Source: a virus
Strand: one strand, 5' to 3'
Virus record (IMG/VR): IMGVR_UViG_3300037852_000415
Location: 13,345 to 77,344 of that record
DNA: 64,000 nucleotides
Shown here: positions 1-63,404 of the stretch, one piece after another
How the letters are laid out: every line of letters begins with the position of its first letter
Position numbering within the stretch: the stretch's first letter is position 1
Made by a program: the position numbers and the translations under genes
The notes under the pieces: generated by a model
Databases searched by the model: none
Told to the model about the DNA's origin: nothing
What the model saw: the letters and a program-made list of their open reading frames with translations, nothing else

Positions 1-2
1 CG

Positions 3-13382: not shown

Positions 13383-13384
13383 AG

Positions 13385-14112: not shown

Positions 14113-14400
14113 ATGAACCAGCCGACGGCTAATTACGCATTCGATTTCATCTACGATGGCGCGTCCGCCACAGTCGTAATAGATCTGCGCAAAGGGCCGG
14201 GGGTTTTCTCGCTCCCTAGCTTTACAGGCGCGCTGCCCCCAATGTTCTTCTCGCAGAACCCGATCAGCGTAGATAGAGCAGCCGTAAGCGACGTACCCAC
14301 TACAGCATCTGTCGCTGGCGAGCTGTTGACCGTCGATATCCCCGCGGGTACGTCGGCTGGGCTAAACTACGCTACGGTATTTCTCTATTACACCTTCTAG
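14113..14400 (+). CDS. hypothetical beta-rich protein
   Basis: GGAG RBS, operon context. Confidence 0.5.
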   Translation: MNQPTANYAFDFIYDGASATVVIDLRKGPGVFSLPSFTGALPPMFFSQNPISVDRAAVSDVPTTASVAGELLTVDIPAGTSAGLNYATVFLYYTF

Positions 14401-14409
14401 GCACGAACC

Positions 14410-35461: not shown

Positions 35462-35779
35462 ATGGCTAAGAAGCAAAAGTCGACGGCGTCGGAAGCTTTC
35501 AAGAACACCCCGAAGACGCGCGTCATGCGCCCCGGTAGAAAGCCGACGAAGTACTGGCTCGACATCGACGCCGCGCTTACCATCGACGACAATACGAGTT
35601 TCGCGTTCAAGTTCCACGGGCTCGCGCCGAAGTTCGGAGGCCTCAGGCCGGAGGAGCTGCCTACGCTCCTGCGCGACCTAGCCGCGCAGCTAGAGAGCCA
35701 AGTGTCCACGTTCGATCTTGGCGCTATGGCCGGCGAAGCGGCCGCAGCCAAGGCGACATCGAAGAAACAGCCGAACTAG
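35462..35779 (+). CDS. hypothetical protein
   Basis: GAGG upstream; follows the preceding gene closely. Confidence 0.55.
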   Translation: MAKKQKSTASEAFKNTPKTRVMRPGRKPTKYWLDIDAALTIDDNTSFAFKFHGLAPKFGGLRPEELPTLLRDLAAQLESQVSTFDLGAMAGEAAAAKATSKKQPN

Positions 35780-36912
35780 GGCGCGGCGCTGACGACGACC
35801 GTCATCATGAACACCAGGTTCACGACGTTATTGCCGGAGTTGTCCAAGCCGTAGCGCGAGAAGACCAACGTGCCCCTGCCGGGCGACGTAGCTTGGAACG
35901 TGATGACGCCTTGGTCGGCTGCTTGTGAGGCCGCCGACTCCTGCCCCGCCATCGTGGTGATGGGCATCTGGCCGCCGTCGAGGGCGGCCGCGCCCCACGT
36001 GTTGCCGCTTGCGTCGACCCACCCGGTGTACCAGGAGTTGCAGTACACCCCCGGCGTGCTCGTGCTGCCCGAGGCGAAGACACCGCCGCGTGAATCCTGC
36101 GAGTTTTGCGGCGCCTGGGGCACGCACATGGGCGTCGCCGTCGGGTCGTTGAAGATGAACGACACCACGTCCCCGACGTTCAGCGCGATGGGGTTACCGA
36201 TCTGCTTGCCGTAGGTCGATACCGACTGGTTGACCCCGTTCGGCCAGCTGACTGCGTAGCTCTTGGGCACGTAGGGGGGCGCCTGCTGAGCGCCGCCGCC
36301 GTGCGGGTTGAAGACGACGACGCCCCCGCCCCCGTTGCTGCCGGGCTTGATCGTGGCGCCGCCGGTGTTCTTCGCGCCCCCGCCTTGGTTGACGACGAAA
36401 CCGCCGCCGGTAAAGACGCCTGTGTTGGCGCCTTTCTGCGTAGCACCTGCTTGGTTGGACCCGCTACCGCCGCCCTGGTTGACGCCGCCGATAGCAGCGC
36501 TGACAGTTACCGTAGCGCTCAGCGACGGCACCCCCGAGACGGGCTGCCCCGTCGAGCTCGAGTAGAGCGTCGCGGCAATCATCGACGCGCCGACCTGCAG
36601 CCCCGTGAGGGTGAAGCTGTGGAGTGCCGGGCTTCCGACGCCGCCGCCCGTCGTGCCGACGTCGACGATGCTTACGACGGCGTTATTCTTCGCTTGCATC
36701 ACCCACGCACTGCCGAGCATCTCGGGAAGCGTCACGCGCACCGGCACCCCGATGACGAGTGGAATCGACGCGGGTAGAGACGCGCCGTTGTTGGCGGCGC
36801 CGCCCCCGCTTGTCGACGCTGCCGGCTTGTTACCGAGCAGTAGAAAACCGCCGACGCCAAGAATCGCCGCGGCGGCGCCGATGCCAACCCAAACCTTCGT
36901 CGACTCTTTCAT
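35776..36912 (-). CDS. N-terminally anchored membrane protein with two Ig-like domains and a Gly-rich linker
   Basis: MKESTK-TM; beta-rich domains. Confidence 0.7.
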   Translation of the reverse strand: MKESTKVWVGIGAAAAILGVGGFLLLGNKPAASTSGGGAANNGASLPASIPLVIGVPVRVTLPEMLGSAWVMQAKNNAVVSIVDVGTTGGGVGSPALHSFTLTGLQVGASMIAATLYSSSTGQPVSGVPSLSATVTVSAAIGGVNQGGGSGSNQAGATQKGANTGVFTGGGFVVNQGGGAKNTGGATIKPGSNGGGGVVVFNPHGGGAQQAPPYVPKSYAVSWPNGVNQSVSTYGKQIGNPIALNVGDVVSFIFNDPTATPMCVPQAPQNSQDSRGGVFASGSTSTPGVYCNSWYTGWVDASGNTWGAAALDGGQMPITTMAGQESAASQAADQGVITFQATSPGRGTLVFSRYGLDNSGNNVVNLVFMMTVVVSAAP

Positions 36913-37250: not shown

Positions 37251-38375
37251 ATGCGCAGCGCGCGTGACGCAGAGCTGATGCTGATGCCCCACTTGCGGCG
37301 CGGCGTCGGGCAGCTTTCAGACTCGGCGCAGATTCAAAGCGTACTCGGAGGCATCCCAGGCGTCAGCCAAGGCCAAGTCAATCAAGCCATTACGACGTAC
37401 AACGGGCTAACTTCGGCGGCGACCGGGAGCATCCTCGGCATCCTCAATGGCGGCCCCATCAACGCCGCTACGCTTGGGCCGGTTGTGGCGTCTGGGATGG
37501 CTTTGTTAGGCGCTACGGCGCCCGAGATTGCTGCAGTGGCGATCGGCTTGTCGGTGCTCGGCGCTTTCGCCTCCTTGTTCGCCCCGGCGCCTCAGAACTG
37601 TAGTTGGCGTGTCGCCAACAAGTGTTTCAACGCCAACCGCCCTTCGGGCCCCGGCGACCCAGCGTGGATGACGTGGGGTCAATTCGCCCAGAACCCGCTC
37701 GACGTCGCGGCGGCGTTCCCTTGGTACTACGTGCAGGCGTGCGACCTCGGCGCCATCAACTCGACGCCTACGCCATCACCGCAGCTGCAGTTTCTGAAGA
37801 CGTACTACGCTGCGTGGCAAGCGAACGCCGAGTATCTCATCAACGGGTATCAGGCGATTGACGATTGCGCCCTCCTGACGATTGTGGCTAACGCGTGGAA
37901 CAACGGGCACGACGGGAGCTCTACGTATACATTCCAACCGACGCCCGCTTTCGGTCTTCAATCTGAGTGGGATTCGAGCTTCCCTGGCGGCATTCCCCGT
38001 GCGGTGCAGTGCCCCGGAGACCAAAACCTGCCCCCATTCGTTCCCGGCGCGCCGCCGACAGCTAGGAGCTACGTCGGCCTCTTGATGGATGGTGACATCA
38101 CCGCTACGCGATGCAGCGCCCAGGGGCTTCCCATCAACACGGGCGGGGCGTTCTTGACGAGCCACTTCATCCTGCCCCCCAAGGGCCCATCGGTGCCATC
38201 GACGACGTCAACAGGCGCGAAGGTTGCACTCGGAGGCGCCGCAGTCGTTGGCGCCGGGCTGTTGGGGATTGGCTTGTTGGCGCTTATCAAGGGGTGGGGC
38301 TTCGGTAAGGCAGTCGACTACGTGTGGGGTAAGACGGGCAAACCCGCCATCGCCTACGTCAAGAAACACGTCTAA
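37251..38375 (+). CDS. membrane virion protein (RRGVGQ leader, C-terminal TM)
   Basis: Hydrophobic segments, Cys-containing domain. Confidence 0.7.
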   Translation: MRSARDAELMLMPHLRRGVGQLSDSAQIQSVLGGIPGVSQGQVNQAITTYNGLTSAATGSILGILNGGPINAATLGPVVASGMALLGATAPEIAAVAIGLSVLGAFASLFAPAPQNCSWRVANKCFNANRPSGPGDPAWMTWGQFAQNPLDVAAAFPWYYVQACDLGAINSTPTPSPQLQFLKTYYAAWQANAEYLINGYQAIDDCALLTIVANAWNNGHDGSSTYTFQPTPAFGLQSEWDSSFPGGIPRAVQCPGDQNLPPFVPGAPPTARSYVGLLMDGDITATRCSAQGLPINTGGAFLTSHFILPPKGPSVPSTTSTGAKVALGGAAVVGAGLLGIGLLALIKGWGFGKAVDYVWGKTGKPAIAYVKKHV

Positions 38376-39036: not shown

Positions 39037-39606
39037 GTGCTCGCCGCCGCCCTCTTTGCTGTCGGCGGAAGCCTGATCCTTGGTGCCATTGAGGTGTTCG
39101 CTCGGCTAGGCTTGGCGCAGACGCCTCCGACAACTGTCGGTGTGCACATTGATTGGGTACAGCTTCCGAGCGGTCAAGACGTCCAAGTTACTAAGGGCTA
39201 TGCCTACGCGGGCATCGTCAGTATCAAGAAGACTCGTACTAAAACAGACATAGCGGCCTTCCTGTTGAAGCGCGGACTGTCGATATCCGATTATGCCGAG
39301 CAAGGGCAGCGCCCCGATATCCCCGTCGACCCAGACCCGGACTACAAGACGGTCACGTTGATGACGGCGGTAGCCGTAGCCAGCGACGGAACGATCCCCT
39401 GGCAGATGCCCGCGCTGCTCTCAGGGAGAGACCACGCCATCATTGTATGGGCCGGCACGCCGAGCGGCTCTGGACTGCCGCCGGAACCGCCGGCTCCGCC
39501 TACTCCGGTGTGGCCGTATGTGGTAGGCGCCGTAGTCGTAGTGGGCTGCGGGTTGACTGTGTGGGAGGTGTATCGCCGAGAGACGTCGAAAAGACGAGGC
39601 GCCTAG
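39037..39606 (+). CDS. membrane protein (LGLAQ motif, C-terminal TM and basic tail)
   Basis: N- and C-terminal hydrophobic helices. Confidence 0.65.
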   Translation: MLAAALFAVGGSLILGAIEVFARLGLAQTPPTTVGVHIDWVQLPSGQDVQVTKGYAYAGIVSIKKTRTKTDIAAFLLKRGLSISDYAEQGQRPDIPVDPDPDYKTVTLMTAVAVASDGTIPWQMPALLSGRDHAIIVWAGTPSGSGLPPEPPAPPTPVWPYVVGAVVVVGCGLTVWEVYRRETSKRRGA

Positions 39607-39632
39607 CGCGAAGCTGCTTAGTCTGCGGAGCT

Positions 39633-39959
39633 ATGTACTACCTCCTCTGCGAAAAGCACCGCATCAACAACTACTTCAAGTCGCGCCCACCGAGCGGTTC
39701 CGGCGCTGTCGCTACCTTCTGGTTCTTTGACTGCACCAACCTGAAGAGCGTCGAGCACGCCTTCAACGATGCGCTCGCGTCAGGGAAGAAGTTCAGCGTC
39801 TTTCGCCCCTTCCCCATCGCGGGGAGCTGGTTCGGCTGCGACATCGTGGGGTACACCCACAGGCCCAATGTCGGCATACACTCTGATGAGGCGGAAGCTG
39901 AGCGCCGGGGCGATATGCTCCACGAGTGGATCGAGACGCGAGCGCTGCGCATGGTGTAG
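39633..39959 (+). CDS. hypothetical protein
   Basis: TAGTCT box 8 nt before ATG 39633. Confidence 0.5.
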   Translation: MYYLLCEKHRINNYFKSRPPSGSGAVATFWFFDCTNLKSVEHAFNDALASGKKFSVFRPFPIAGSWFGCDIVGYTHRPNVGIHSDEAEAERRGDMLHEWIETRALRMV

Positions 39960-39961
39960 AT

Positions 39962-40072
39962 ATGCTTGATGTTTTCGACACTATCCCGCCCGATGCGCAC
40001 GCTCTACTGGTGCTTGTCGCCGTCGGCATGTTGCTGTTCGGTGCTGGCCTCTTGGCGATGCGTAAGCGCTAA
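39962..40072 (+). CDS. 36-aa membrane peptide (below cutoff)
   Basis: MLDVFDTIPPDAHALLVLVAVGMLLFGAGLLAMRKR. Confidence 0.5.
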   Translation: MLDVFDTIPPDAHALLVLVAVGMLLFGAGLLAMRKR

Positions 40073-40132
40073 CGCAGTTGCGCACACGAGTACGCAGCGG
40101 TAACCTATCGTAGTCAAAAGGAGACTACCAAG

Positions 40133-40648
40133 ATGGGCTGCTGCTCCAACTGTGACAAAGGCCTGCCGTGCGCCGACGGTAATGGCGACCTGAACCCCGC
40201 TGTAGCTGCCGGTATCGCGGGCAGCGGTATGGGCGCTACCGCCATCGAGATGCAGGCCCTGCTAAAGTCTCGAGCGATGTCGCCGGCCCAGCGCGCGATG
40301 CAGGGCCACGTGCTGATTCAGCAGATGATGAGCGGTCGGCCGATCCGAGGTTTCGGCCAAGCCGGGGCCGTGCCCGCGAAGACGTGCTGCGGTGGCGGCA
40401 CCATTATCGACGCGAACGGCAACTGCGTCCCCGCCTGTGTGAGCTCGGTGGGTGGCGCCGCCGGCAGCGTCGCCGCTAGCATACCGTCGGTAAACGGCCT
40501 CTGCCCCCAAGGCTTCCAGCTCGCGCCCCAGGGCATCGCCGACTACTGGTGCCAGGCGTCGACTACGGCGAAGGTCGCTGTCGTTGCCGGCGGCGTCGGC
40601 GTCGTCGGCCTGGGCGCCTGGCTCTTGATGCGCAAGAAGAGGAAGTAG
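40133..40648 (+). CDS. Cys-rich tail-anchored virion protein (GMGA, GFGQ)
   Basis: AAGGAG RBS; TM then RKKRK. Confidence 0.7.
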   Translation: MGCCSNCDKGLPCADGNGDLNPAVAAGIAGSGMGATAIEMQALLKSRAMSPAQRAMQGHVLIQQMMSGRPIRGFGQAGAVPAKTCCGGGTIIDANGNCVPACVSSVGGAAGSVAASIPSVNGLCPQGFQLAPQGIADYWCQASTTAKVAVVAGGVGVVGLGAWLLMRKKRK

Positions 40649-41086
40649 ATGCCCCCCACCAACCAAGGGCGCGCGCTCGTCGCGCGCATGTACCGTGGGC
40701 TCGGTCAAGCCTCGAACGCGGCGCTGCCCCCGGGTACCGTAGCGAACCCCACCTACGACCCTAACGCCGCCGCCGGTACGCACAACGCGTTTACGTGGGT
40801 GTCACAAGTCAGTGGGCTCAACGACGGCGACTGTTCGCAGAGCGCAGTCATCGACCCCATCACCGGCCAGTGCGCGAATCTCTGCCCCGACAACTCTCGG
40901 CCAGCGAACGGCTGCCCGCCCGCGACAGGCATTCCGCTCTGGTGGGGCCTCCTCCCCATGTGGCAGAAGGTTGCCGTCGGCGCGGGCGGCGCGGCGGTGG
41001 TGCTCGGCGGCGGATACATGCTGCTTCACAAGAGTAAGCCCGCCGCGCGACACGCGAAACGCCGCGCTAAGCATCGCAGAAGGTAG
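40649..41086 (+). CDS. Cys-rich tail-anchored virion protein (RGLGQ)
   Basis: TM then a basic tail. Confidence 0.7.
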   Translation: MPPTNQGRALVARMYRGLGQASNAALPPGTVANPTYDPNAAAGTHNAFTWVSQVSGLNDGDCSQSAVIDPITGQCANLCPDNSRPANGCPPATGIPLWWGLLPMWQKVAVGAGGAAVVLGGGYMLLHKSKPAARHAKRRAKHRRR

Positions 41087-41089
41087 CAA

Positions 41090-41602
41090 GTGGATAGGCG
41101 CCTCGCTTGGGCACTTGGCGCAGTCGCGGTCGCAGGTGCGGCCGTCGGAGCGCTAATCTTAGCGAGCGGCAGCAAGCCATCTGCGCCGAGCGGCGGCGTC
41201 ACGCCGGCACCGGGCGGCGGCAATGGGGGCTCCGGTGTGAAACCCTCCTCCGACCCGTGGGGCGACCTGAAGACGCAGATTCAGATTCTCGACTTGAGCG
41301 CGAATAACCTCCGCGCCGACACGTTCGTCAATCACCCTACCGTGTGGGCGGTGTGGGTGGATGCGGGTACCGTCATGGACGACGCTAACAACCTGATGAC
41401 GAATCCCGCCGGGCAGCCGCTAAAGCCCCCGGCATCCGCGGCGGGCCTCGCGACGCTCAACACCGACGTCACGAAGCTCTTTCAAGATTCCGCCGCGGCA
41501 TCAACGGCTACATTGGTGCCTGCGTCGACGAAGGTGCTCGTCGCGGCTGTTGCGGCGGCGACGCTGGGCGTGTCGCGAGCCGCGTCTACCGCTGGTGTCT
41601 AA
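41090..41602 (+). CDS. N-terminally anchored membrane protein
   Basis: MDRRLAWALGAVAVAGAAVGALILA. Confidence 0.65.
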   Translation: MDRRLAWALGAVAVAGAAVGALILASGSKPSAPSGGVTPAPGGGNGGSGVKPSSDPWGDLKTQIQILDLSANNLRADTFVNHPTVWAVWVDAGTVMDDANNLMTNPAGQPLKPPASAAGLATLNTDVTKLFQDSAAASTATLVPASTKVLVAAVAAATLGVSRAASTAGV

Positions 41603-43194: not shown

Positions 43195-43650
43195 ATGGGA
43201 CGGCCCCCGAAAACACCTGAGGAGCATGCCGCACGTAACGCGTACAGACGAGCACACTACGCTGCGCACAAAGATGAGATAAACGCTCGGCGGCGCGCCC
43301 CTGAGGCACTTGAGCGATCGCGGGCCGCCGGCCGCGCGCGGTACGCTGCACACAGAGACGACCCCGGCTTCAAAGAAGAGAATAGGGCTAGGGCGCGTGC
43401 GTACGTGGGGGCGCACAAAGACGATCCCGAATTCATCCTAATCTGTTCTCGCTTGATGGCTGTGGGTGGTGGACGTGGAGGGCGCGGCAACAATACCGCT
43501 CACGTAGACCACGATCATGTTACCGGTGAAGTGCGCGGGCTCTTGTGCCACGCATGCAATATAGGCATCGGAGGGTTGAGAGACAGCATCGCGCTACTGA
43601 AGAACGCCGTCGCGTACCTAGAGAGCGGGCCATCATGCGTACTGGCGTAG
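43195..43650 (+). CDS. endonuclease VII domain protein, possibly degenerate
   Basis: HVDHDHVTGEVRGLLCHACNIGIG; first CxxC pair incomplete. Confidence 0.75.
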   Translation: MGRPPKTPEEHAARNAYRRAHYAAHKDEINARRRAPEALERSRAAGRARYAAHRDDPGFKEENRARARAYVGAHKDDPEFILICSRLMAVGGGRGGRGNNTAHVDHDHVTGEVRGLLCHACNIGIGGLRDSIALLKNAVAYLESGPSCVLA

Positions 43651-45281
43651 GAAGCGATTCGTTCAATCCTGGCGTCAACAGGATGCGCGCAGCCGGCGTG
43701 AAGGTCGACGTGCAACCTTACAGCGACGGCCCCGCGGGTGTCGGCCAGAGCCTCGACGTCATCGCCCAGAAGATTCGCGAAGGCGCTGCTGACAGTGACC
43801 TGCAGGGATGGAGTGCCGAGAAGCTTCGCGCCGCCGGGTTCGACGGGCGCGCCAAGACGCCGACGGTACAGCAGCTCTGCGAAGTTCTTCTGGCCGCCTA
43901 TCGGCAGGAAGTAATCTATGCCAGTGATCCGGCGCGCACCGAGCAGATCCAATCGCCCGCCGCGACATTGTGCTTACGCCCGGGGCTGTGCCTTCGACGT
44001 GGTGACTGCGACGACGGAGTCGTCGCTCTCGGCGCGGCCATTCTGTCGTACGCTGTGCCCGTGCGGGTTATAAAACAGCCATACGCTCAGCAAGAGCACG
44101 TATTGCTGGGCGTCATCGACGACAGCGGCACAGTCTTGTACGTCGATACCGCTAACAACCTGTATAAGGTAGGGCCTGGCGGTTCACCGGGGTGTCCGCC
44201 TAAGGTGCCTGGCGAAACCTATGTCGACCCCATGAATAGCGCCCCTGCCGGCCCCGCCGGCACCTCTGGCGCCCAGCTTATCACCCTCGGAGCCTCGCCC
44301 AAGATGCAATCTCAATCGCAGTCGTCTCAAGCCGTCTATAGGCACAACAGATGGTGGCGCCTCAGCGCCGGCTGCGGCGGCAACCTCGAAGTTCACGAAG
44401 GCGGCAACTGGTACAGAGTCGGCACCGGCCAGGCCCCCGCGGCGCCGAGCGACTTCGCAGCTCTGAAGGCGGCGCAGGATGCGCAGTGGAGCCAGGTGTC
44501 GGCGCAGATTCAAGCCTGCAGCTCTGGATTGACGGCATCTTCGCAGTCGGCGTTCGCCTCCGACTATGCCACGTGGCAAGCCTTTGCGGCGTCGACTACG
44601 GCGACGGCGGACGACTACACGCGCCTTCGCGCCTTCAACAGCATCCTTCAGGTGTGGCAGCTGAAGGCGCAGGTCTACTGCAACGCCGCATCGAACCCCG
44701 GCGGCGCCGTCGGCGTCGGCGCGATTCACGTGCCGGGCATCAACTGCAACATCGACGACTTGAAGGGGCAGAAGTTGCGCCTCCTCGGGCCCTGGACGCA
44801 GCTCGGAAACGACGTCGACAACTGCCCGCTCTGCAAAGACGACCGAAGCCTCTGCGCCGCGACGAGCGCGTATCCCAACGGGGCCCCGAACGGGATGACG
44901 CTGACGCAGAAAACCGACTTCCTCCAAGACTTCCTCACGTTTCAGAACTGGTACAACGCCGACTTCCCCATCTGCGACGCCGATGCCGAGATAAACCAGG
45001 GGCGCGATCTAGAGCAGCGCTACGACAGGTGGCGGAAGATTGTCACCCAATTCTGCACCGGCGCGAATCTGCCGGGGGTGCAGTCGCCTGACTTGCCCCC
45101 GCTCCGCAATGACGACCCCCGAAGCCCCAACTACGTACCCCCGGCCGGCCCCGGCGACATCGCAGCAAGCATCGCGAAGAGTGTCGCCGTCGTCGGCGTC
45201 GCAGCCGCCGCGATCTACGGTATGTACATCATCGCCCCGGCGGCGCGGAACCTCTTCGATAGAGTCACCAAGAAGAAGTAG
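43635..45281 (+). CDS. transglutaminase-like (Cys-His-Asp) enzyme fused to two repeated helical domains and a C-terminal TM
   Basis: GDCDD (Cys 44007), EHV (His 44097), YVD (Asp 44145); start ATG 43635. Confidence 0.8.
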   Translation: MRTGVGSDSFNPGVNRMRAAGVKVDVQPYSDGPAGVGQSLDVIAQKIREGAADSDLQGWSAEKLRAAGFDGRAKTPTVQQLCEVLLAAYRQEVIYASDPARTEQIQSPAATLCLRPGLCLRRGDCDDGVVALGAAILSYAVPVRVIKQPYAQQEHVLLGVIDDSGTVLYVDTANNLYKVGPGGSPGCPPKVPGETYVDPMNSAPAGPAGTSGAQLITLGASPKMQSQSQSSQAVYRHNRWWRLSAGCGGNLEVHEGGNWYRVGTGQAPAAPSDFAALKAAQDAQWSQVSAQIQACSSGLTASSQSAFASDYATWQAFAASTTATADDYTRLRAFNSILQVWQLKAQVYCNAASNPGGAVGVGAIHVPGINCNIDDLKGQKLRLLGPWTQLGNDVDNCPLCKDDRSLCAATSAYPNGAPNGMTLTQKTDFLQDFLTFQNWYNADFPICDADAEINQGRDLEQRYDRWRKIVTQFCTGANLPGVQSPDLPPLRNDDPRSPNYVPPAGPGDIAASIAKSVAVVGVAAAAIYGMYIIAPAARNLFDRVTKKK

Positions 45282-45808: not shown

Positions 45809-47476
45809 ATGTCTGACTACATCGACATCATGCAGCAGGAGACCGGAGACGACATGGCAGCCAGCCGACGCCGAAGCCGCCGCGCCAAAAGCGGCAAAAA
45901 GTCGAAGAATCGCGCGGCATTCGAGCGCGCCAGGCGCATCGCGAAGAAGCGCCCCGCTCCGAAGCGGCGCAGCGCACGCAGAGGCGCAAAAGAAGCTTCA
46001 CGCGCGAAAAGTCGTACCCGCCGCTTGACAAAAGCGCGTAGGGCAGTGCACACTTCCCGAAGTGCAGGGGAGTCTCGGGGAAAACGAAGGAACCGACGTC
46101 GCAAACAGCGAGTTTCCAGGGAGACCCCGTCAATGGCCCGTAAACGAAAGCGCAGCTGCAAGTACGGTAAGCTCAAGGTGAAGCGCGGGCGGCGCCGGTG
46201 TAAGAAGCCGGCGGCGGTGCACGCTCGCCGGAAGAGCGCGAAGCGCGTGGCGGCTGGCCGGAAGGCCGCCCGCACCCGCAAGCGCCGCGCCGGTCGGGGG
46301 AGCCCCTCCCACGGTATGCACTCTGCGTGGGAAGCTCCGAAGCGCAAGCGTAGCAAGAAGCGCGGCAAGAAGCGCAGCCGCGCTAGCTACAAGCGCAAGC
46401 GTCCGGGCCATCGCAAGCACAGCGTGAGGGGCTACTACCGCAAGAAGAGCCGCGGTAGCCGCAAGCGCGTCTACGTCAGGGGCCATCGGAGCCATGAGGC
46501 CCCGAAGCGTCGTCGACGCCGCCGGCATCACGCCGCCGCAAAGCGCCACTCGCGTCGCCACTACCACCGTCGCTCTCGGGCGATGGAGAACCCCATCTCC
46601 GTGATGGACGGCGTGGTCGGCGGCGTTTGCGGCCTCATCGGCTACGGCGCGGCTGAAGTCGTGGACCGCCTCCTCGCCACCCACGCCCTCACCGACACGA
46701 ACACCAAGGACGCGAACGGGGTGGAACTCTACACCGACCCCGCCGACTCGAGCGGTCACTGGAATGCCACCTACGTGCTCGGGCCCATGAGCCTCGGCAG
46801 GTGGGCGGCAGGCCTCGGCATCGCAATCGTCCCGCTCTTGGCTGGCGGGATGATCAAGAAGCCTGCGCTGCGCTCCTGCGTGCAGTTCTTCGGCTTCGGC
46901 GCGTTGATTCGCACCGGCGGAAAGGGCCTCACGGATCTGCTCGCCTACGTCTCGCGCAAAACCGCGGTCGGCCAGCGCCTCTTCATCCCCGAAGACAGCG
47001 CCCAGTCCGCGCTCAGCGCCGGCAAGTACGACACGACGCTCCCGGGCATCGCGCCCGGACCTACCGGCCTCGCGGGGCTTCCCCCCGCCGGCTGCGGGTG
47101 CGTCAACTGCAAGACGGGCGTCGGCGCTTGCTGCGGCAAGACGACCATCGCTCAGCTTCAGCAGGGCACCATCCAGCGCGCCACGGGGCAGCCCCAGACG
47201 GGCTCTGTCGCCAACCCCACCGTCAACACCGGCGAGACGGTAGGCACTCCGGCTCAGCAGCCTCCGGGCGGCGCGAACCAGGGCGGCACCCCTGTCGGCG
47301 TCGCCAATCCGCCCTCGCCGTCGCCAGTCGGCGTCGTCTTCGGTGGCGGTGGCATCGTGCCCTCTACTTCACCTGGACCCCTCCGCGGGGCCCCGCTTGG
47401 CTCGGGTGCAGGCCGCTCCCCGGCAATGCCCGTCCTTTACAACCCCAACATTCGGCGCATGGCCGAAGGAAACTAG
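45809..47476 (+). CDS. protamine-like basic core/membrane protein
   Basis: About 250 aa R/K/H-rich N-terminal part, then hydrophobic segments and a P/G-rich tail; directly precedes the capsid candidate. Confidence 0.75.
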   Translation: MSDYIDIMQQETGDDMAASRRRSRRAKSGKKSKNRAAFERARRIAKKRPAPKRRSARRGAKEASRAKSRTRRLTKARRAVHTSRSAGESRGKRRNRRRKQRVSRETPSMARKRKRSCKYGKLKVKRGRRRCKKPAAVHARRKSAKRVAAGRKAARTRKRRAGRGSPSHGMHSAWEAPKRKRSKKRGKKRSRASYKRKRPGHRKHSVRGYYRKKSRGSRKRVYVRGHRSHEAPKRRRRRRHHAAAKRHSRRHYHRRSRAMENPISVMDGVVGGVCGLIGYGAAEVVDRLLATHALTDTNTKDANGVELYTDPADSSGHWNATYVLGPMSLGRWAAGLGIAIVPLLAGGMIKKPALRSCVQFFGFGALIRTGGKGLTDLLAYVSRKTAVGQRLFIPEDSAQSALSAGKYDTTLPGIAPGPTGLAGLPPAGCGCVNCKTGVGACCGKTTIAQLQQGTIQRATGQPQTGSVANPTVNTGETVGTPAQQPPGGANQGGTPVGVANPPSPSPVGVVFGGGGIVPSTSPGPLRGAPLGSGAGRSPAMPVLYNPNIRRMAEGN

Positions 47477-47529
47477 CTCAAGGGGTGGTGCCCGCAGGGA
47501 CACCCTGAGAATCTAGGAAGGCAAACATC

Positions 47530-48813
47530 ATGGCTGGTCGTCTCGCAAAACCCACTCAGAAGAACCCGCGGCTGACGCTCGGCGTCGGCCAGGGCACGCC
47601 CAACTCGGACATCGTCAACCTCTTCAAGAGCGCGACGAGCTGCCCCATCTACGCTTTGCCGACGGTGGCGAAGCGCCAGTGGGAGTTCGAGGGCCCGGTG
47701 TCGCAGGCCAACGTTCAGCGAAGCCTCGGCAACCAGATCGACATCCTCGGCGGCAGCAACGCCACGGCGCCCGACAACGTCTACCAGACCGACGGGCTCA
47801 TCAACGGTGAATTCCAGACGTACGTCCTCGCGTGCGCCGTCGGAATGCACCTCGAGCCGGAACCCATGTGCTGGACGGCGCAGGGCAACGCGATTCTCGT
47901 GCCGGGCTCGTCCATCCCGATGCCGAACAGCCCCGACGACTACACCGTGCTCGACCAGAGCAACTTGGTGTACGGCGGTGCGACGCAGTCTGTGCCTCAG
48001 GTGCAGACGAGCATGCGGCGTGCGGTGCTCGAGTGGGGCTGGTGGGCGAACTACGCCTTCTGGCACCTCGTCCGCGGGTACAACCTCCGTTGGACCTACG
48101 GCTCCCTCATCAACATCATGGACGAGCAGCTGCGCGACACCGCGTACACGCCGCCCAACGCTCAGGAAGGCTCTGCCTCTTCGAGCCAGGTTGCTATCTG
48201 CGACTTCGTGCAGCGCACGAACCAGCGGTACATCTCGACGCTCGCCGCGACGCGCATGTTCCTCTGGCAGAACCTCGTTCGCGTCGGCACCCTCGGCGCG
48301 ACGACCACGTCGACCGAGACGCAGGGCAAGTTCCGGCCCTTCGACGACGTCCTCGTGGACGCCACCTACGGAGGCATGGATCTGCGAAGCATGCTGCGTA
48401 ACAACAGCGAGTTCCGCACCCTCGAGCAGCCGTACATCCTGAAGCCGGGCGTTCCGCCGGGCCTCATCCTCGAAGCGAACGGCGACAACGCCGAGCAGGC
48501 GCTCTTCCAGGCGCAGTTCGACGCGTCGGGCGGCTTCACGGGCGCGACCCCGCCTTACTCGTTGACCCCCTTCGGCACGCTCATCGCGAACGGCGCCGGC
48601 CAGGTGTTCGACGAGCTCTCGGCGGACAACGTCGATGTTCTCCAGCAGGTCAACACCGAGCACTACGTGTTCAAGGGCGGAACGGCGCTCATGAGCATGG
48701 AGATCAAGGGCTACGAGATCACCGAGCCCCTCGCGGACCAGATCAAGAGCGACCCCACGCTCCAGGCTCAGATCTGCTCCGAGTGCGGCTGCGCGGTCGG
48801 CTGGGCCTCGTAA
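47530..48813 (+). CDS. candidate major capsid protein (single-jelly-roll-like, with insertions)
   Basis: Strong AGGAAGG RBS, near-exclusive C/G third positions, flanking hairpins; NGEFQTYVLACAVGMHL / FRTLEQPYILKPG..GLIL / MEIKGYE strand pattern. Confidence 0.55.
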   Translation: MAGRLAKPTQKNPRLTLGVGQGTPNSDIVNLFKSATSCPIYALPTVAKRQWEFEGPVSQANVQRSLGNQIDILGGSNATAPDNVYQTDGLINGEFQTYVLACAVGMHLEPEPMCWTAQGNAILVPGSSIPMPNSPDDYTVLDQSNLVYGGATQSVPQVQTSMRRAVLEWGWWANYAFWHLVRGYNLRWTYGSLINIMDEQLRDTAYTPPNAQEGSASSSQVAICDFVQRTNQRYISTLAATRMFLWQNLVRVGTLGATTTSTETQGKFRPFDDVLVDATYGGMDLRSMLRNNSEFRTLEQPYILKPGVPPGLILEANGDNAEQALFQAQFDASGGFTGATPPYSLTPFGTLIANGAGQVFDELSADNVDVLQQVNTEHYVFKGGTALMSMEIKGYEITEPLADQIKSDPTLQAQICSECGCAVGWAS

Positions 48814-48894
48814 TCGGCGGAAGCTGATTCACGGCAGGGCAGCGCAAGCTGCCTCGCCGTCGACAGCCTCGCTGTGAGAGCGGTGCTGTCGACG
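48812..48894 (+). terminator. three consecutive hairpins after the capsid candidate
   Basis: AATCGGC-GGAA-GCTGATT; GGCAGC-GCAA-GCTGCC; CGTCGACAGC/GCTGTCGACG; no U-tract. Confidence 0.4.
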
Positions 48895-48910
48895 ACGAAA
48901 GGCGTGAGAG

Positions 48911-49549
48911 ATGGCTGACGAGACGAAAGAGCTGAAGGAAGGCGTCGGAAGCTGCGGTAACCCCAGCCAGTGCTGCGGGCCCGCCGTCGAGGACGTCCGC
49001 CAGATGCTTGCGCTCGGCTCACCGAGACTCGCGCTAGCGAAAGCGCTCGGCGTGCCCCTCGCACCCTGGGCGTTCACCATCACTGCCACGTTCACCAGCG
49101 TCAGCCAGAACCTCGTCGCCGACCAGGGCCAAAACGTGAAGCTGGTGCAGGACATCATCGTCGATGACATCCGCTACCAGATCGACACGCAAGTGACGCC
49201 GAGCGGCGACTTCGACAACTTCAATTACGCCTGCTTCGCACAACAGAGCAATATCGAAGCGAACCTCCGCGTCAGCGGCGCGCCCCGATACGACGTGTAC
49301 TCGCAGTTCACGCCGCTCGCGATGATTCGCCGGCCCACGCAAGGGTGGGTTCTCCAGCAGACGAACGGCGTCTTGATGTCCTTCCAGAGCAACGTTCCCC
49401 TTCAGAATGTGCCCATCAAGATCTCCTTCGTCTTCGAGTGCCGGACCACGCACTGGGCGAAGCTCATCGACATGAAGCAGCGCGAAGCGGTGCAGATGCT
49501 CTGCAAGCTCGGGTACGACGTCGGGTCTTACACAGAGCTCTACTGCTAA
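48911..49549 (+). CDS. candidate second capsid protein (single-jelly-roll-like)
   Basis: FTITATF..KLVQDIIVDDIRY..ANLRVSG..PL..WVL..GVLMSF..IKISFVFEC alternating strands. Confidence 0.5.
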   Translation: MADETKELKEGVGSCGNPSQCCGPAVEDVRQMLALGSPRLALAKALGVPLAPWAFTITATFTSVSQNLVADQGQNVKLVQDIIVDDIRYQIDTQVTPSGDFDNFNYACFAQQSNIEANLRVSGAPRYDVYSQFTPLAMIRRPTQGWVLQQTNGVLMSFQSNVPLQNVPIKISFVFECRTTHWAKLIDMKQREAVQMLCKLGYDVGSYTELYC

Positions 49550-49563
49550 GGGAGGTGCCCTAG

Positions 49564-50457
49564 ATGGCGCCTCGCCAAAAAGAGTACCAGAGCTGGGGCA
49601 TCGACCAGAGCGCTGCGTTCGTCGAGACGGACCCGTTTGGCGGGCTCTCGAGCCTCGGCGTCAAGGTACCGACACTCTCGACAGCCGCGCTGCCCTCGGC
49701 GAATCCGCCGACGCTCGGGTACAACAGTCGCTACCTCTTTCACCTCGCGAGCTTCCACGTGCCCGAGAGTGGCGGGTGTGCGCGCATCACCGGCTACCGG
49801 CTGAACGTCCAGATCTGGGCGTTGCAGTCTGGCGAGGGCGGCAACCGGTACGTCAAGCAAACCGTCTACGACCCCGCCTTCAGCTTCCAAGACGGCAACT
49901 GGAGCTGGCACCTGCGCTTCATCCCCGATGTCGGGATGAACGGCATCAGAGTGAGCCCCCCTCTGCCCGTCAATCAGAATGACGGCACGACGGCAAACCT
50001 CGATGGCACTGCGTACCGATGGGCTGACACGCCCGCGATTCTCTATGAGAACATGCTCGTCGCCGCCGGAGATCCCTTCTACGTCGATCTGTTGGATTAC
50101 ACACCCCCGAATAGCGGCAGGCCTTGGGGAGAGCCCCTCGCCGGCATGGGCACATTCTACGGCGTGAGCACGCCTTGGAATACGCACGGCGCATGGAGCG
50201 CGCTCGATATCGAGTGCGATGCGCCAGGCACCTACGCCCTCTTCTGCAGCGTTAGGCAAACGAATAGCTCTACGCGAACCCCGCTGACGCCGCCTGGCAC
50301 CTTCTTCGGTAACGGTCTCTCCGCCGAAGAGCAGTTCCTCTTGAACTTCCCCGGCGCCTGGATCGGCTCTGTTGGGGGGAGCCTCGTAGTCACCTCCGAC
50401 GACGGCGACTGCGGCGACCAGTTCGGCAATCGTGAGAAGGAAGGGCCCTGCTCCTAA
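49564..50457 (+). CDS. candidate penton/minor capsid protein
   Basis: SFHVPESG..RITGY pattern; GGGAGG RBS; position in the module. Confidence 0.4.
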   Translation: MAPRQKEYQSWGIDQSAAFVETDPFGGLSSLGVKVPTLSTAALPSANPPTLGYNSRYLFHLASFHVPESGGCARITGYRLNVQIWALQSGEGGNRYVKQTVYDPAFSFQDGNWSWHLRFIPDVGMNGIRVSPPLPVNQNDGTTANLDGTAYRWADTPAILYENMLVAAGDPFYVDLLDYTPPNSGRPWGEPLAGMGTFYGVSTPWNTHGAWSALDIECDAPGTYALFCSVRQTNSSTRTPLTPPGTFFGNGLSAEEQFLLNFPGAWIGSVGGSLVVTSDDGDCGDQFGNREKEGPCS

Positions 50458-50963
50458 TGGCTACTTCGGCATCGATGATTCGACACTCTGAGGGCGTTGC
50501 CGGCGGGCAAGCGGCCCCACCTGGCAGTGGCGGCGGGCAATCCGCGCGCCCCGCGCCCGGGAGCGACGGGGACATCGCGACGCGCCCCGGTGACGCAGGC
50601 GGCGGTGGGCATTCGACCCACGGCGCTACGCAGCAAGGCGCGCCTCTAGTCGCTAAGCGCCTCCACGGCGTCGGGCAGACAGCACCTGCAAGTGCCGACG
50701 CGCTTTTGCAGCAAGCGCAAAACCAGCTAGCGGCCGCGGCCGCCGCCCTCGTAGCCGGTGACGCCACTACGGCGGCTACCGACGTCGGCAACGCCGTCAC
50801 ACTCGTGGGCCAAGCAAGAGCCGCGATGGCGGCCGCCCCGCCGCCTTCAGGTGTAACTGTCTCCGGCGGTGCCGCCATCGGCATCGCGGCCGGTAGCGCT
50901 CTCTTGGGGGGTGTGGCAGGATGGATGCTGAAGGGTTCAGGGGTACTGAAAGGTAAGCGATAG
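50457..50963 (+). CDS. tail-anchored virion protein (HGVGQ)
   Basis: C-terminal TM then KGKR. Confidence 0.65.
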   Translation: MATSASMIRHSEGVAGGQAAPPGSGGGQSARPAPGSDGDIATRPGDAGGGGHSTHGATQQGAPLVAKRLHGVGQTAPASADALLQQAQNQLAAAAAALVAGDATTAATDVGNAVTLVGQARAAMAAAPPPSGVTVSGGAAIGIAAGSALLGGVAGWMLKGSGVLKGKR

Positions 50964-50965
50964 TC

Positions 50966-51802
50966 ATGGCATCGGCTAATTGGCAGGAAACTCGCAGCGT
51001 GCCGGTGAAGACCGAGCACGGCAACCCCCTTGTCATCGGCATGGGCGCCTCGCCAGTGCAAGCGCACGGGCGTGAGTGGTACCGCGCACCGTCGGGCGCC
51101 GTCTTCAGCCGCCCCGTCGCCGGCCTCGGCAGCGCGGTAGCGCTCAACCAGACCCGGATGCGTAACGCCGTGAATCTGCGGATGCAGCGCGCCTACACGA
51201 CGAGCCCGCGCGGCGTGTCCCTCAGGCACCCACACGTCGGCATGGGGCAGGCTGCGATCTTCAGCGACAGCTGCGGCAACACCCTCTACAGCGACGGCTC
51301 GGCGACGTGCGCCGACGGTAGCTCCTACCCCTGCACGCCCTGCAACGGCATGACGGTGGTTCAAGCCGCGGCGGCTGCCGGCATCACCCCTAGCGGCGGT
51401 GGCGGTGGTGGCGGTGGTATCAGCCTTCAGGCGGCTGCTGCGGCTGCCCTCGCGGCCCTCAACGCCGACCCCAACTACTGCGCCGATGTCGCCGTCGCTG
51501 GAAGCGCCGTGAATACCGCCGTCCACAACTTCAAGTCGGCGTGGAACGCGGCTAACCCTACGACCCCCGTGCCCATCAACACCGGCAACTACGAGCCTTC
51601 GGTAGCGGCGGCGCTGAACAGCCTCGTAGCCGGCGCCCCCGCTGGCTGCGGCGGTGGCGTGAGCCCCGGGCCTGCCCCCGCCCCCGGCCCTTCGCCGAGC
51701 CCGGCGCCGGATACCATGTGGATCGTCGGCGGCGCGGTGGCCGCTGCGGCCATCGTGGGCGGCGCGCTCTACTACAAGAAGAAGCACGGTAGGCGCCGGT
51801 AG
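50966..51802 (+). CDS. tail-anchored virion protein with PG-binding-like domain (GMGA, GLGS, GMGQ)
   Basis: VHNFKSAWN...TGNYEPSVAAALN resembles PG_binding_1; TM then KKKHGRRR. Confidence 0.65.
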   Translation: MASANWQETRSVPVKTEHGNPLVIGMGASPVQAHGREWYRAPSGAVFSRPVAGLGSAVALNQTRMRNAVNLRMQRAYTTSPRGVSLRHPHVGMGQAAIFSDSCGNTLYSDGSATCADGSSYPCTPCNGMTVVQAAAAAGITPSGGGGGGGGISLQAAAAAALAALNADPNYCADVAVAGSAVNTAVHNFKSAWNAANPTTPVPINTGNYEPSVAAALNSLVAGAPAGCGGGVSPGPAPAPGPSPSPAPDTMWIVGGAVAAAAIVGGALYYKKKHGRRR

Positions 51803-51816: not shown

Positions 51817-52167
51817 ATGCTGACGATCGATATGCACGACATCGTCGCCATCGTGGCGTTTTTCATATCGCTCATGACGACCATCGTCGTCGCTCTTACG
51901 AAAGCGAAAGACAAAGCTACCGCGGATGCGCACGCCGCCGAAGTCGCCAAGATCGCGAAGCTGGAATCGCGAGCCGACGATTACGAGCGCCGAATTCAAG
52001 GCAACGAGCTTGCCAGGACGCGCCTGGAAGCTGAGCAGGACGGGTTGACTACGGCTGTGGAAAAGCTAGAGAGAGCGGTAGAGGAACGGATGACGCGCGT
52101 TGAAGAGCGCCTCACCGACATTCTCCTAGAGCTCCAACGCGGTAATTCCAAGAAAGGCCAGGGGTAA
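51817..52167 (+). CDS. TM plus coiled-coil protein (lysis-cassette-like)
   Basis: N-terminal TM, heptads. Confidence 0.55.
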   Translation: MLTIDMHDIVAIVAFFISLMTTIVVALTKAKDKATADAHAAEVAKIAKLESRADDYERRIQGNELARTRLEAEQDGLTTAVEKLERAVEERMTRVEERLTDILLELQRGNSKKGQG

Positions 52168-52172
52168 TCGTC

Positions 52173-52457
52173 ATGGCTGGGTATCAATTCGACGCGCTAC
52201 ACCTCGTTCTGTGGGCGGCCTCGTTCTTCCCCGCAGTCGCCGCGGCGATCCAAGCCGCGCTCGCAGGCTCCGGCGGGCAGCCCCTCAGCGTGCTAGCCGT
52301 CATCATGATCGTCGTGCCCATCTTCGTCACCTCGTTAGCCGTGCTGCAAAGCGCGAAGTCGCAAGCGAGCGTCACTGCGATGAAGAAGGCGCTCGTATCG
52401 ACGCCTCCGCCGGCCCCCGCACTCGCCAAGATGGGCTTCCAGAAGAAAAAGCAGTAA
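52173..52457 (+). CDS. holin-like 2-TM protein
   Basis: Two TMs and a basic C-terminus. Confidence 0.45.
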   Translation: MAGYQFDALHLVLWAASFFPAVAAAIQAALAGSGGQPLSVLAVIMIVVPIFVTSLAVLQSAKSQASVTAMKKALVSTPPPAPALAKMGFQKKKQ

Positions 52458-52743: not shown

Positions 52744-53121
52744 ATGAGCAACATCAGGCTCGAGGGCCTCAGGCCCATTCGCGACCGCGTCATCGTGCGC
52801 CCCGAGGAGGCGCCCAAGGTGACGAAGGGCGGCATCATCATCCCCGAACATATCCGAGGCGTGAAGCCGAAGGATGAAAAGGGGCGCCACGCCGTGTGGG
52901 GCACTGTCATCGCTGTCGGCCCCGGGGCGACGGACATGAAGGGCCGCTACTACCCCATCGAAGTCGTTCCGGGAGATCGTATCGCCTTCTCCGAGGGCGC
53001 GCCCAAGGAAGTCTTCAAAGACGACTCCGGCGCCGACATCTACTCCATCTCCGGCTTCGCAATCTTCCTCGTCGACGAGGACACGCCCGTTAGGCGTGAC
53101 ATGAGAGGTACGCACATATGA
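52744..53121 (+). CDS. groES: co-chaperonin GroES homolog
   Basis: LRPIRDRVIV, TKGGIIIP, GTVIAVGPG, PGDRI. Confidence 0.85.
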   Translation: MSNIRLEGLRPIRDRVIVRPEEAPKVTKGGIIIPEHIRGVKPKDEKGRHAVWGTVIAVGPGATDMKGRYYPIEVVPGDRIAFSEGAPKEVFKDDSGADIYSISGFAIFLVDEDTPVRRDMRGTHI

Positions 53122-57493: not shown

Positions 57494-58109
57494 ACTAGCC
57501 GCTGAGCGCGATTTAGAAAGCGCTCTGATCGATACTCCACACTGGGGCAGTATAGTCGCGGAGGTTCGCCGCAACCTACTGGCGGGCCACTACAAGGATC
57601 AGCGCATAGTCGATGCTATCTTCCAACGCGACAAGCGCGCCGGAAGATTGACGTTCGAGGAGGCGCACTGTTTCGCATGCGTATGGTGCGCTATCGCGGC
57701 CGGTGACATAGCCGTAGGGACTGTCACTGTGGGCGGAACACCGTACGCCGATGCTCAAGTCGACGATAACCTGGCCGCGCTGCGCAGACTGCCGCAGCTA
57801 TTCGACGTGACCATCAACCGATCCGCTAACGGCGATGGGCTACTGACATGGTCCTCGCCGATGTTCATGTACAGACGCACCCCAAACACAGACATCAAGG
57901 AGAAAGTGCGCGTACCCGCCGGCTCGTTAGCGTTGGAGATCGGTACGACGATGGCCAGCCGTACGTGGATGCACTTCACTACAGGCTTCGGTGTTGCTCG
58001 CTGGCCTTACGGAAGTCCATGCGTAGTCATTCTGCGACGGCTAGATTGGGACGGCGCTTCTGTATTGCCGCCTGGCGACGATGGATTGGAATCGTTTACC
58101 ACAGAGTAA
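57477..58109 (+). CDS. hypothetical protein
   Basis: Probable GTG start at 57477; converges on the recombinase. Confidence 0.5.
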   Translation: MSTWHELAAERDLESALIDTPHWGSIVAEVRRNLLAGHYKDQRIVDAIFQRDKRAGRLTFEEAHCFACVWCAIAAGDIAVGTVTVGGTPYADAQVDDNLAALRRLPQLFDVTINRSANGDGLLTWSSPMFMYRRTPNTDIKEKVRVPAGSLALEIGTTMASRTWMHFTTGFGVARWPYGSPCVVILRRLDWDGASVLPPGDDGLESFTTE

Positions 58110-59124
58110 CCGCGCGCCGTGCGCGCGCGTCAGCGTCCACCTGCCTCCGGTCGTACCGCGCGGTAGTGCGGGGGCTCTCGTGCCCCATCAGACGTTGCAC
58201 CGTCGCCAGATCTAGCCCCGCCTCGAGCAGGAACGTGCAGTACGTGCGCCGACAGTCGTGTGGCGTGAAGCTTTTGACCCCCGCACCGGCTGCCGCGGCC
58301 GCGCAGAGACGCCCTAGCCACTGCGAATTGAGCGCCTCGAGCCCCTTCCGGCCCTCGAGCCGTACGAAAAGCCAGGGGCGCTTCACCTTCAGCGCCGCGC
58401 GAGCCTCGAGCCAAGCCCCCAAACAGGCGCTTTCCGACGCCCCCACGGGCACCTCGCGCTCCTTTCGGCCCTTCCCGACCACGCGGACGACCCCCTCGGC
58501 GTCCCACGCCTCCACGGGGGCGCAGCAAACCTCTTCCGCACGCAGCCCCGCACCGATCATTAGGGCGAAACACCCCCGCACAAGGGCCCCGTACGCCCCT
58601 GCTAGCCCCTGCGACCACGCCCGAAGCTTGCTCAACTCCTCCGAAGTGAGGCTCCTACCGGCTGCGAGTGAGCTCCCGCGGGGCGTTTCTACGCTGCGGA
58701 GCAGCTCATACCGCTCCCGATTGATGCAGCCGAGCTTCCAAGCGTGCTTGAAAACGCTCCTCAGAGCTGAAAGGGTGACCGCGACGGTGGCCCGGCGGTA
58801 CCGTTTCACCAGCTCACCCCCGATAAAGGCGACGTCGGGGTACTCCAAAGAGCCCCACGGGTAGCTGCGCCACCCCTCAGGCTCTTTATCTACGTCCACG
58901 CCGAGGCACTTGAGGGCTCTTTTGAGCCCCTCTCTAAGCGTCTCCTGGCTCCTAGAGGAATAAAGAGCGTCAAAGGCGGCCTCCGCGGCTAGCGCGCGCG
59001 GCGCGGCGCGCACCACGCGACCCCCTACAGCCTTCGCCGGCACCATGGGGCGCGCGGGCTCCTCTGTAGGTACAGCCGGAAGTAGTACTAAAGCATCGAT
59101 ATCGTTGACTTTTTCGTCGATCAT
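58096..59124 (-). CDS. int: tyrosine recombinase/integrase
   Basis: GLRAEE (R), GKGRKER (K), HDCRR (HxxR), LMGH, RYD (Y); GGAGAAGG RBS. Confidence 0.93.
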   Translation of the reverse strand: MIDEKVNDIDALVLLPAVPTEEPARPMVPAKAVGGRVVRAAPRALAAEAAFDALYSSRSQETLREGLKRALKCLGVDVDKEPEGWRSYPWGSLEYPDVAFIGGELVKRYRRATVAVTLSALRSVFKHAWKLGCINRERYELLRSVETPRGSSLAAGRSLTSEELSKLRAWSQGLAGAYGALVRGCFALMIGAGLRAEEVCCAPVEAWDAEGVVRVVGKGRKEREVPVGASESACLGAWLEARAALKVKRPWLFVRLEGRKGLEALNSQWLGRLCAAAAAGAGVKSFTPHDCRRTYCTFLLEAGLDLATVQRLMGHESPRTTARYDRRQVDADARARRAVTLW

Positions 59125-63159: not shown

Positions 63160-63404
63160 AAGTCACCGGCCAGCTGCGCATTCCCGAGTGGTTCATCATG
63201 GCCGGCGTCCTGCACTGGACCTACAGGGGCGTTCGCTACGCGAGCCCCATCGTCGCCACGTGCCCGAAGTGCGGCAAGCGCGCCGTGATTGAACTGCCGG
63301 CGGCAATTCTTTCAAGCCAACCAGACGCGACGACACACGTGTGCCATCCGCTCCTACTGGGGTGTAACCACGGCTTCAAACTGGAAAAGGAAGATTCGCA
63401 ATGA
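63156..63404 (+). CDS. small Zn-binding protein
   Basis: CPKC, CHP...GCNHGF. Confidence 0.55.
   Translation: MKVTGQLRIPEWFIMAGVLHWTYRGVRYASPIVATCPKCGKRAVIELPAAILSSQPDATTHVCHPLLLGCNHGFKLEKEDSQ

Follow-up and report, generated by a model that had tools for sequence, protein, structure and literature searches.

SPV1, of the Portogloboviridae, has single jelly-roll capsomers, an internal membrane and a nucleoprotein core, and it carries no packaging ATPase (PMC8459092, PMC8812541). The family has a circular genome of ~20 kb and a hyperthermophilic archaeal host (PMC8459092), and current scenarios place portogloboviruses at the root of the single jelly-roll double-stranded DNA (dsDNA) viruses (PMC8812541). 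The Helvetiavirae, which include the Halopanivirales viruses SH1, HHIV-2, HCIV-1 and P23-77, now make up a realm of their own, Singelaviria (PMC12714852). SSIP-1, a bacterial phage that contains a membrane and has no tail, possesses two types of capsid protein, and its genome is nearly without database similarity (PMC6356626). The present work concerns a block of six genes, at positions 45809-51802 of a 64,000-nucleotide stretch of IMG/VR virus record IMGVR_UViG_3300037852_000415 (the window), from which the particle of a soil virus, complete at 77 kb and lacking the ordinary phage head, portal, tail-tube and motor genes, is most likely built. The sampling of tailless phages that contain a membrane is believed to be very poor; no known bacterial one exceeds about 44 kb, SSIP-1 being the largest cultured phage known of its build, and, with few exceptions, they package with an ATPase.

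We read the block as the core of a particle-building module (~33-53 kb) of a complete 77.3-kb soil dsDNA virus that is temperate-capable and not a tailed phage, a reading to which we give a probability of about 0.6. An earlier note, made from the letters of the window, had recorded a run of beta-strand proteins followed by many membrane proteins and had proposed an unusually large relative of the Halopanivirales. Its observation is confirmed and its interpretation is partly supported. The open reading frames (ORFs) that it named are all present where it had placed them, on the + strand.

The block and its candidate shell genes

The six ORFs of the block are as follows (TM, transmembrane helix; GC3, G+C content at third codon positions):

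45809..47476, + strand: 555 aa, polybasic arm followed by a conserved membrane domain and a Gly/Pro/Cys-rich tail (from composition and conservation)
47530..48813, + strand: 427 aa, candidate major shell protein (from GC3, conservation and an AlphaFold2 model)
48911..49549, + strand: 212 aa, predicted single jelly-roll protein, candidate second shell or vertex protein (from a model and Foldseek)
49564..50457, + strand: 297 aa, conserved partner protein, always directly downstream of the 212-aa gene (15-nt gap here)
50457..50963, + strand: 168 aa, C-terminal TM and basic tail, homologues in two relatives (L004, L005)
50966..51802, + strand: 278 aa, likewise with a C-terminal TM (residues 250-268) and a basic tail (YYKKKHGRRR), homologues in the same two relatives

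The block ORFs lie in the high-GC3 frame, with values of 0.80-0.91. The order of the genes encoding the 578-aa protein (a neighbour described below) and the 555-, 427-, 212- and 297-aa proteins is kept in ten IMG/VR loci, in ~40 metagenome loci and in a distant 17-kb contig, at identities of 28-78%. This in-frame GC3, together with the order kept in independent loci, shows that the genes of the block are real. Long contigs that carry the 427-aa family are typically 60-82 kb. The 427-212-297 segment is the most conserved and most codon-biased part of the module; the GC3 of the 427-aa gene (0.91) is the highest of the genome and that of the 212-aa gene is 0.86, as would fit structural proteins of high abundance.

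A collection of 5.8 billion proteins contains 188 homologues of the 427-aa protein, and the 120 that were listed have no Pfam domain and no name other than 'hypothetical protein'; at 50% identity the family forms 191 clusters among 1.84 billion representatives. The AlphaFold2 model, built from 53 sequences, is beta-rich, with ~19 strands (predicted local distance difference test, pLDDT, 85; predicted template modelling score, pTM, 0.84). Foldseek returned nothing for it at an E-value of 0.001 or better, and hence no close solved relative, and a Foldseek comparison with BFVD gave no match with E at or below 0.001. The weak fold matches are nearly all to jelly-roll capsid proteins and never to HK97, and they are too weak to define the fold. 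In the ESM Atlas the feature clusters closest to the 427-aa protein are those of capsid proteins from picobirnaviruses and partitiviruses, a lead only, since their scores of 0.75-0.78 lie below any useful threshold. From the model and the conservation of its gene, we infer that the 427-aa protein is a candidate major shell protein, with a predicted fold that has no close solved relative.

The neighbouring 212-aa protein is better placed. Its model (37 sequences, pLDDT 82) shows a clean eight-strand single jelly roll with helices on its flanks, and Foldseek finds a single match below an E-value of 0.001, to the coat protein of SPV1 (6oj0_A, E 6.6e-4, probability 1.0); other capsid proteins with a single jelly roll come next, among them those of SH1 and HHIV-2. 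The scores against capsid proteins were 7.3-7.4 for HHIV-2, 7.2 for SH1, 6.3-6.5 for HCIV-1 and 6.1 for P23-77 VP17. The proposal that the block carries single jelly-roll capsid genes is thus upheld for the 212-aa protein, a clear jelly roll in its model, while for the 427-aa protein it comes down to jelly-roll capsid matches that are all weak.

The 297-aa protein has 26 homologues (identity 32-63%) and no family match in Pfam/PHROGs, PDB or phage records. Its ESM Atlas model is poor (pLDDT 0.32), with uninformative neighbours, and a predicted complex with the 212-aa protein scored 0.21 against a mark of 0.32, which is evidence neither way. Profile-profile comparison found no kinship of the 427, 212 and 297 families to each other, so that they are not demonstrably a duplicated pair of major capsid proteins. 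Between the 427 and 297 families, hhalign matched only a common Y-x-P-P-N motif (TAYTPPNA at residues 203-211 of the former, LDYTPPNS at residues 176-184 of the latter). PDB profile searches with these two families gave nothing meaningful. No cultured phage record shares the three proteins: tblastn against 50,697 phage records matched neither the 427- nor the 297-aa protein and gave a single chance-level match for the 212-aa protein. No protein similarity to SSIP-1 was found in that search either, the inclusion of SSIP-1 among those records being unchecked. Full-text literature searches turned up no published description of this virus group.

Upstream of these three genes, the 555-aa protein begins with 276 residues of which 40% are lysine or arginine. 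This composition is kept in 28 of the 28 full-length relatives examined (29-44% over 170-310 residues), in an arm of poorly conserved sequence; the conserved part of the protein is its membrane domain, residues 258-442. We propose that the 555-aa protein is a DNA condenser, as its composition suggests.

Completeness of the genome and search for packaging genes

The record is a single contig of 77,344 bp, and the window corresponds to its bases 13345-77344. The two contig ends share an exact overlap of 62 bp, inside a GCC-rich coding repeat. When one copy is removed and the ends are joined, an intact 278-aa ORF is obtained, with its stop at contig base 299, where the next gene starts. The genome is judged complete because the terminal overlap restores this ORF, IMG/VR classes the record as DTR (direct terminal repeat) and CheckV gives a completeness of 100%; its length is 77,282 bp and it is circular or circularly permuted. 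The junction ORF (window 63401-64000 plus contig bases 1-299) contains a long repeat of the YAADAA(D/N)AAV type, encoded by GCC-rich DNA. The assembly break falls inside this repeat, so that the number of repeat copies is uncertain.

The 13 kb beyond the window contain two helicases and three fibre/spike proteins and, in Pfam/PHROGs scans, no packaging or head genes. These scans covered essentially all ORFs of ~200 aa or more, the 13 kb included, and detected no terminase, portal, HK97 capsid, tail-tube or tape-measure family. Six-frame hidden Markov model (HMM) searches for Terminase_6N, TerL_ATPase, Phage_capsid, Phage_portal, FtsK_SpoIIIE, Pox_A32 and DUF87/HerA were run on the present genome and four relatives, at 92-100% completeness, and on control genomes, which gave matches. 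The large terminase subunit (PF03237, PF03354; controls positive), the HK97 capsid and portal (PF05065, PF04860) and packaging ATPases of the FtsK, HerA or A32 type (PF01580, PF01935, PF04665) were found in none of the five genomes. A scan of all six frames for Walker A motifs retrieved nothing beyond the Dda, VapE and Sak4-like proteins, apart from an unlikely ORF of 157 aa. The lack of a recognisable terminase, portal, HK97 capsid, tail tube or tape measure, first noticed in the window, thus holds for the complete genome and four relatives. A packaging ATPase had been expected perhaps to lie outside the window; none is detectable in the complete genome or in the relatives.

A possible assembly pathway and competing readings

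A TM scan identified at least ten proteins that end in a single C-terminal TM followed by a short polybasic tail. This tail-anchored set comprises proteins of 63, 199, 796, 374, 189, 171, 145, 578, 168 and 278 aa, and several others are anchored N-terminally. The earlier remark that membrane proteins are numerous is borne out, the block being unusually rich in tail-anchored ones.

No packaging NTPase being detectable, the genome would be condensed rather than pumped. The ~276-residue arm of the 555-aa protein and the polybasic tails of the at least ten membrane proteins would neutralise the DNA at the inner face of a host-derived membrane vesicle. Jelly-roll-type subunits would form a protein shell on that membrane, with the 427-aa protein as the major shell protein, the 212-aa protein as a second shell or five-fold vertex subunit and the 297-aa protein as their conserved partner. 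A 509-aa low-complexity protein may be the scaffold, and a GroES homologue may assist in the folding of the shell protein. The three fibre/spike proteins would stand at the vertices, for host recognition, and a transglutaminase-like enzyme, an M23-like protein and an Rv2525c-like lysin would act in maturation, entry or exit.

Because no packaging ATPase is detectable, the hallmark of the Halopanivirales fails and the Portogloboviridae come nearer; they would be the closest analogue, in the sense of analogy and not of membership. A packaging ATPase is absent from SPV1 (PMC8812541) and not detectable here, and the terminal overlap of the present record fits a circle, like the circular dsDNA of SPV1. 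The lipid layer of SPV1, its membrane proteins beneath the capsomers and its core condensed by a basic protein (PMC8459092) have possible counterparts in the many membrane proteins and the polybasic DNA-binder candidate described above. The differences are considerable. There is no sequence similarity, and the genome, at 77 kb versus ~20 kb, is nearly four times larger. The present virus was found in soil, and it carries genes of bacterial type (GroES, M23, Rv2525c-like lysin, phage-type PolA/VapE), as well as an integrase, fibres and a large replication module. Its candidate DNA binder is a membrane-anchored protein of 555 aa, whereas SPV1 has a small soluble nucleocapsid protein, and it has an additional shell candidate, the 427-aa protein, with an unmatched fold.

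A bolder proposal, which we hold tentatively and with the odds somewhat against it, is that this virus stands for a lineage of high rank, not described before, whose members infect bacteria and are common in soil; ~77 kb of DNA would be packaged in it without a motor, by condensation on a membrane through a membrane-anchored, protamine-like protein. Its shell would combine an SPV1-like single jelly roll with a 427-aa major protein that has no close solved relative, and its genome would be by far the largest known of this build (about 1.8 times that of SSIP-1). A tailless membrane-containing jelly-roll design with a protamine-like DNA binder has so far been described only for much smaller viruses. 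If the proposal is true, a widespread soil group of 70-80 kb extends the size range of this architecture several-fold and provides a bacterial counterpart to the archaeal portogloboviruses, and the question arises of how a 77-kb genome is enclosed without a motor. Virus surveys that use terminase, HK97 or double jelly-roll capsid markers overlook this group.

Several points weigh against a tailless, motor-free particle. Shell, membrane and taillessness are all deduced from genes, the virus being known here from its genes alone, and the fold models made here cover the 427- and 212-aa proteins. The absence of a motor is drawn from HMM and motif searches, and a very divergent ATPase is conceivable. 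The Sak4-like AAA_24 protein was considered as a hidden packaging ATPase and is not favoured, given its location in the replication module and its Sak4-family matches. Finally, fibres of the S74 type and PolA/VapE/Sak4 replication genes are typical of tailed phages.

Four other explanations were considered. A membrane virus of enveloped or pleomorphic form, or else a mobile element that forms vesicles, would have no icosahedral protein shell, and its jelly rolls would be spikes, lectins or matrix proteins. We regard this as unlikely. It agrees with the missing packaging motor, the great abundance of membrane proteins and the presence of an integrase; the jelly roll is also a common fold of carbohydrate-binding and fibre proteins, and such proteins tie with capsid proteins in the match lists of the 212-aa model. 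However, the fullest match of that model, over 141 residues and including the flanking helices, is to a capsid protein, separate fibre/spike proteins are already encoded, and the 427-212-297 segment is both the most conserved and the most codon-biased, as expected for stoichiometric shell proteins.

It is improbable that the virus belongs to the double jelly-roll lineage (Bamfordvirae type), its packaging ATPase having been lost or become unrecognisable. Viruses of the PRD1 type (Tectiviridae and relatives) resemble it in their internal membrane, vertex spikes and jelly-roll architecture, all deduced here from genes, and the weak matches of the 427-aa model include PRD1 P3. Yet this confident model gives Z-scores of only 2.5-3.1 against PRD1 P3 and STIV, and true double jelly-roll proteins usually match one another far better. 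Searches for an ATPase of the A32, FtsK or HerA type were negative.

Less probable again is a true, enlarged member of the Halopanivirales (Helvetiavirae), as the earlier note had it. That reading was close in spirit; what fails is the hallmark FtsK-HerA packaging ATPase, which was not found, and the paralogy of the capsid genes. Unlike the shell proteins of SH1, HHIV-2, HCIV-1 and P23-77, the candidates here are not detectable paralogues, and they have no sequence or profile similarity to each other, to PDB or to phage records. The habitat is not extreme, and the genome is more than twice as large as those of the largest members, which are roughly 30 kb.

A tailed phage, with terminase, portal, HK97 capsid and tail genes too divergent for HMMs to recognise, is very improbable. 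In its favour are tail-fibre-like proteins that carry an S74 chaperone domain and match a tail-fibre PHROG (E 1.6e-31), a 264-aa protein that matches baseplate and virion PHROGs and a replication module like that of Caudoviricetes. Against it, every ORF over 250 aa is assigned, membrane-anchored, of low complexity or of a non-HK97 beta fold and leaves no candidate, neither of the two proteins modelled (427 and 212 aa) gave an HK97 match, Walker A motifs occur only in replication genes, and the hallmarks are equally absent from the four relatives.

Neighbouring genes, habitat and host

The other features of the genome are listed by position, in window coordinates except where the contig is named:

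contig 9819-11039 and 11439-13118, just upstream of the window: first and second fibre/spike proteins
1..1565, + strand: C-terminal 520 of the 595 aa of the third fibre/spike protein (ORF at contig 13122-14909)
15431..17821, + strand: 796-aa protein with a weak M23 peptidase domain (Pfam Peptidase_M23, E 7.7e-5, below the curated cut-off)
18978..19616, + strand: Rv2525c-like glycoside-hydrolase-type lysin (Pfam PF08924, E 3.6e-23)
33124..33918, + strand: repeat-domain virion protein, 264 aa (PHROGs virion structural, baseplate wedge and tail fibre, E 3e-8 to 5e-5)
33930..35459, + strand: acidic, Ala/Pro-rich low-complexity protein, 509 aa (in 10 of 10 IMG/VR relatives)
35776..36912, - strand: 378-aa protein with an N-terminal TM (9-27) and a Gly-rich ectodomain (GC3 0.86; homologues in L004 and L005)
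37251..38375, + strand: membrane protein, 374 aa (TM 328-346, tail ending in KKHV; kept in six relatives)
39037..41602, + strand: four small membrane proteins of 189, 171, 145 and 170 aa (TM scan)
43195..43650, + strand: endonuclease VII-type HNH nuclease (Pfam Endonuclease_7, E 3.4e-16; PHROGs endonuclease VII, E 1e-17)
43545..45281, + strand: membrane-anchored transglutaminase-like protein (Cys-His-Asp), 578 aa, with a C-terminal TM and a KKK tail
51817..52457, + strand: a 116-aa protein (N-terminal TM and coiled coil) and a 94-aa protein (two TM) (TM scan; weak PHROGs unknown-function match, E 8.6e-5)
52744..53121, + strand: GroES (Cpn10) co-chaperonin homologue (Pfam Cpn10, E 3.8e-15; kept in six relatives)
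58096..59124, - strand: tyrosine integrase (Pfam Phage_integrase, E 1.5e-23)

The 578-aa family is present in all relatives. Its residues C155, H185 and D201 are invariant in 20 homologues, and 10 of 20 family members match Pfam Transglut_core (best E 1.7e-6). A PDB profile match of this family to HLA chains was discarded as spurious, being caused by the TM segment and the basic tail. Two members (L009:4897-7197 and L017:1451-3802) match Hint and LAGLIDADG_3; these are probably the long forms, of 767-784 aa, and would then be intein-bearing. The usual site of inteins is in essential, conserved genes. The HNH nuclease gene, which lies within the virion block, overlaps the first-start-codon call of the transglutaminase-like gene; its product has a basic repeat N-terminus and could be a branch-resolving enzyme or a homing nuclease.

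The GroES homologue is encoded 3 kb downstream of the shell genes and recalls the phage co-chaperonins required for capsid-protein folding. Homologues of the 264-aa virion protein occur in two relatives (L008, L013). The 509-aa protein, which belongs to no Pfam or PHROGs family, looks scaffold-like from its composition. Two of the four small membrane proteins at 39037..41602 are Cys-rich, with a C-terminal TM and the polybasic tails RKKRK and HKSKPAARHAKRRAKHRRR; the 796-aa protein has its TM at residues 759-777 and ends in the polybasic tail KKRRRRLRR. The first two fibres have a common N-terminal motif, MGA(L/V)RSSGAIRNT, which suggests a common docking site. The first contains a Peptidase_S74 intramolecular chaperone domain (E 7e-13), in addition to the tail-fibre match cited above, and the second gives a weak beta-helix signal.

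The replication and recombination genes recognised are those of a Dda-like helicase, an SNF2 helicase, VapE, a PD-(D/E)XK exonuclease, the Sak4-like AAA_24 protein, UDG-PolA, ThyX, methyltransferases, RadC and endonuclease VII. A helix-turn-helix (HTH) regulator, the tyrosine integrase, GroES, the Rv2525c-like lysin, the weak M23 domain and the S74-domain fibre complete the recognised set. The replication genes attributed to this virus from the start (PolA, ThyX, Sak4-like and VapE), and its integrase, are thus all recognised, and we infer that the virus is temperate-capable. Beside the integrase, ~920 nt (59138-60055) have no credible ORF by the GC3-based gene call and could hold attP. A scan of 42.5-55 kb for promoters and terminators gave no excess over the shuffled expectation, and no tRNA was found in the window.

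Near-identical DNA is present in several soil metagenomes, two of which may be the record's own source, and two further studies contain 43-49% of the words sampled. Pieces with 0-1 mismatches, mostly within the 427-aa gene, occur on contigs from three soil metatranscriptome libraries. DNA can occur in RNA libraries, and these pieces are weakly compatible with transcription; such contigs cannot rank genes, and the uncovered parts of the block carry no meaning.

A myxobacterium-type host had been hinted at from Cys-rich lipoproteins, among other cues, and is rejected as unsupported. In GTDB the 427 family is confined to three small contigs of metagenome-assembled genomes (MAGs), two different viral ones in one Polyangiaceae MAG and one, of 4.4 kb, in a Chloroflexota MAG. 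It is absent from 400 other genomes of the phylum to which the Polyangiaceae MAG belongs, that is, it occurs in 1 of 401 genomes of the phylum, the one being the MAG that had prompted the search. The lipoprotein cue shrinks to one clear signal in the genome, the lipobox LLSC at residues 24-27 of a 180-aa protein (11409-11951), which may be a lipoprotein of the superinfection-exclusion type. The same Polyangiaceae MAG holds a second, far more distant member of the module (L057, G005:C825, 17,017 bp), with 28-33% identity and the same gene order. Since this distant member keeps the order, the module is older and more diverse than its close relatives imply.

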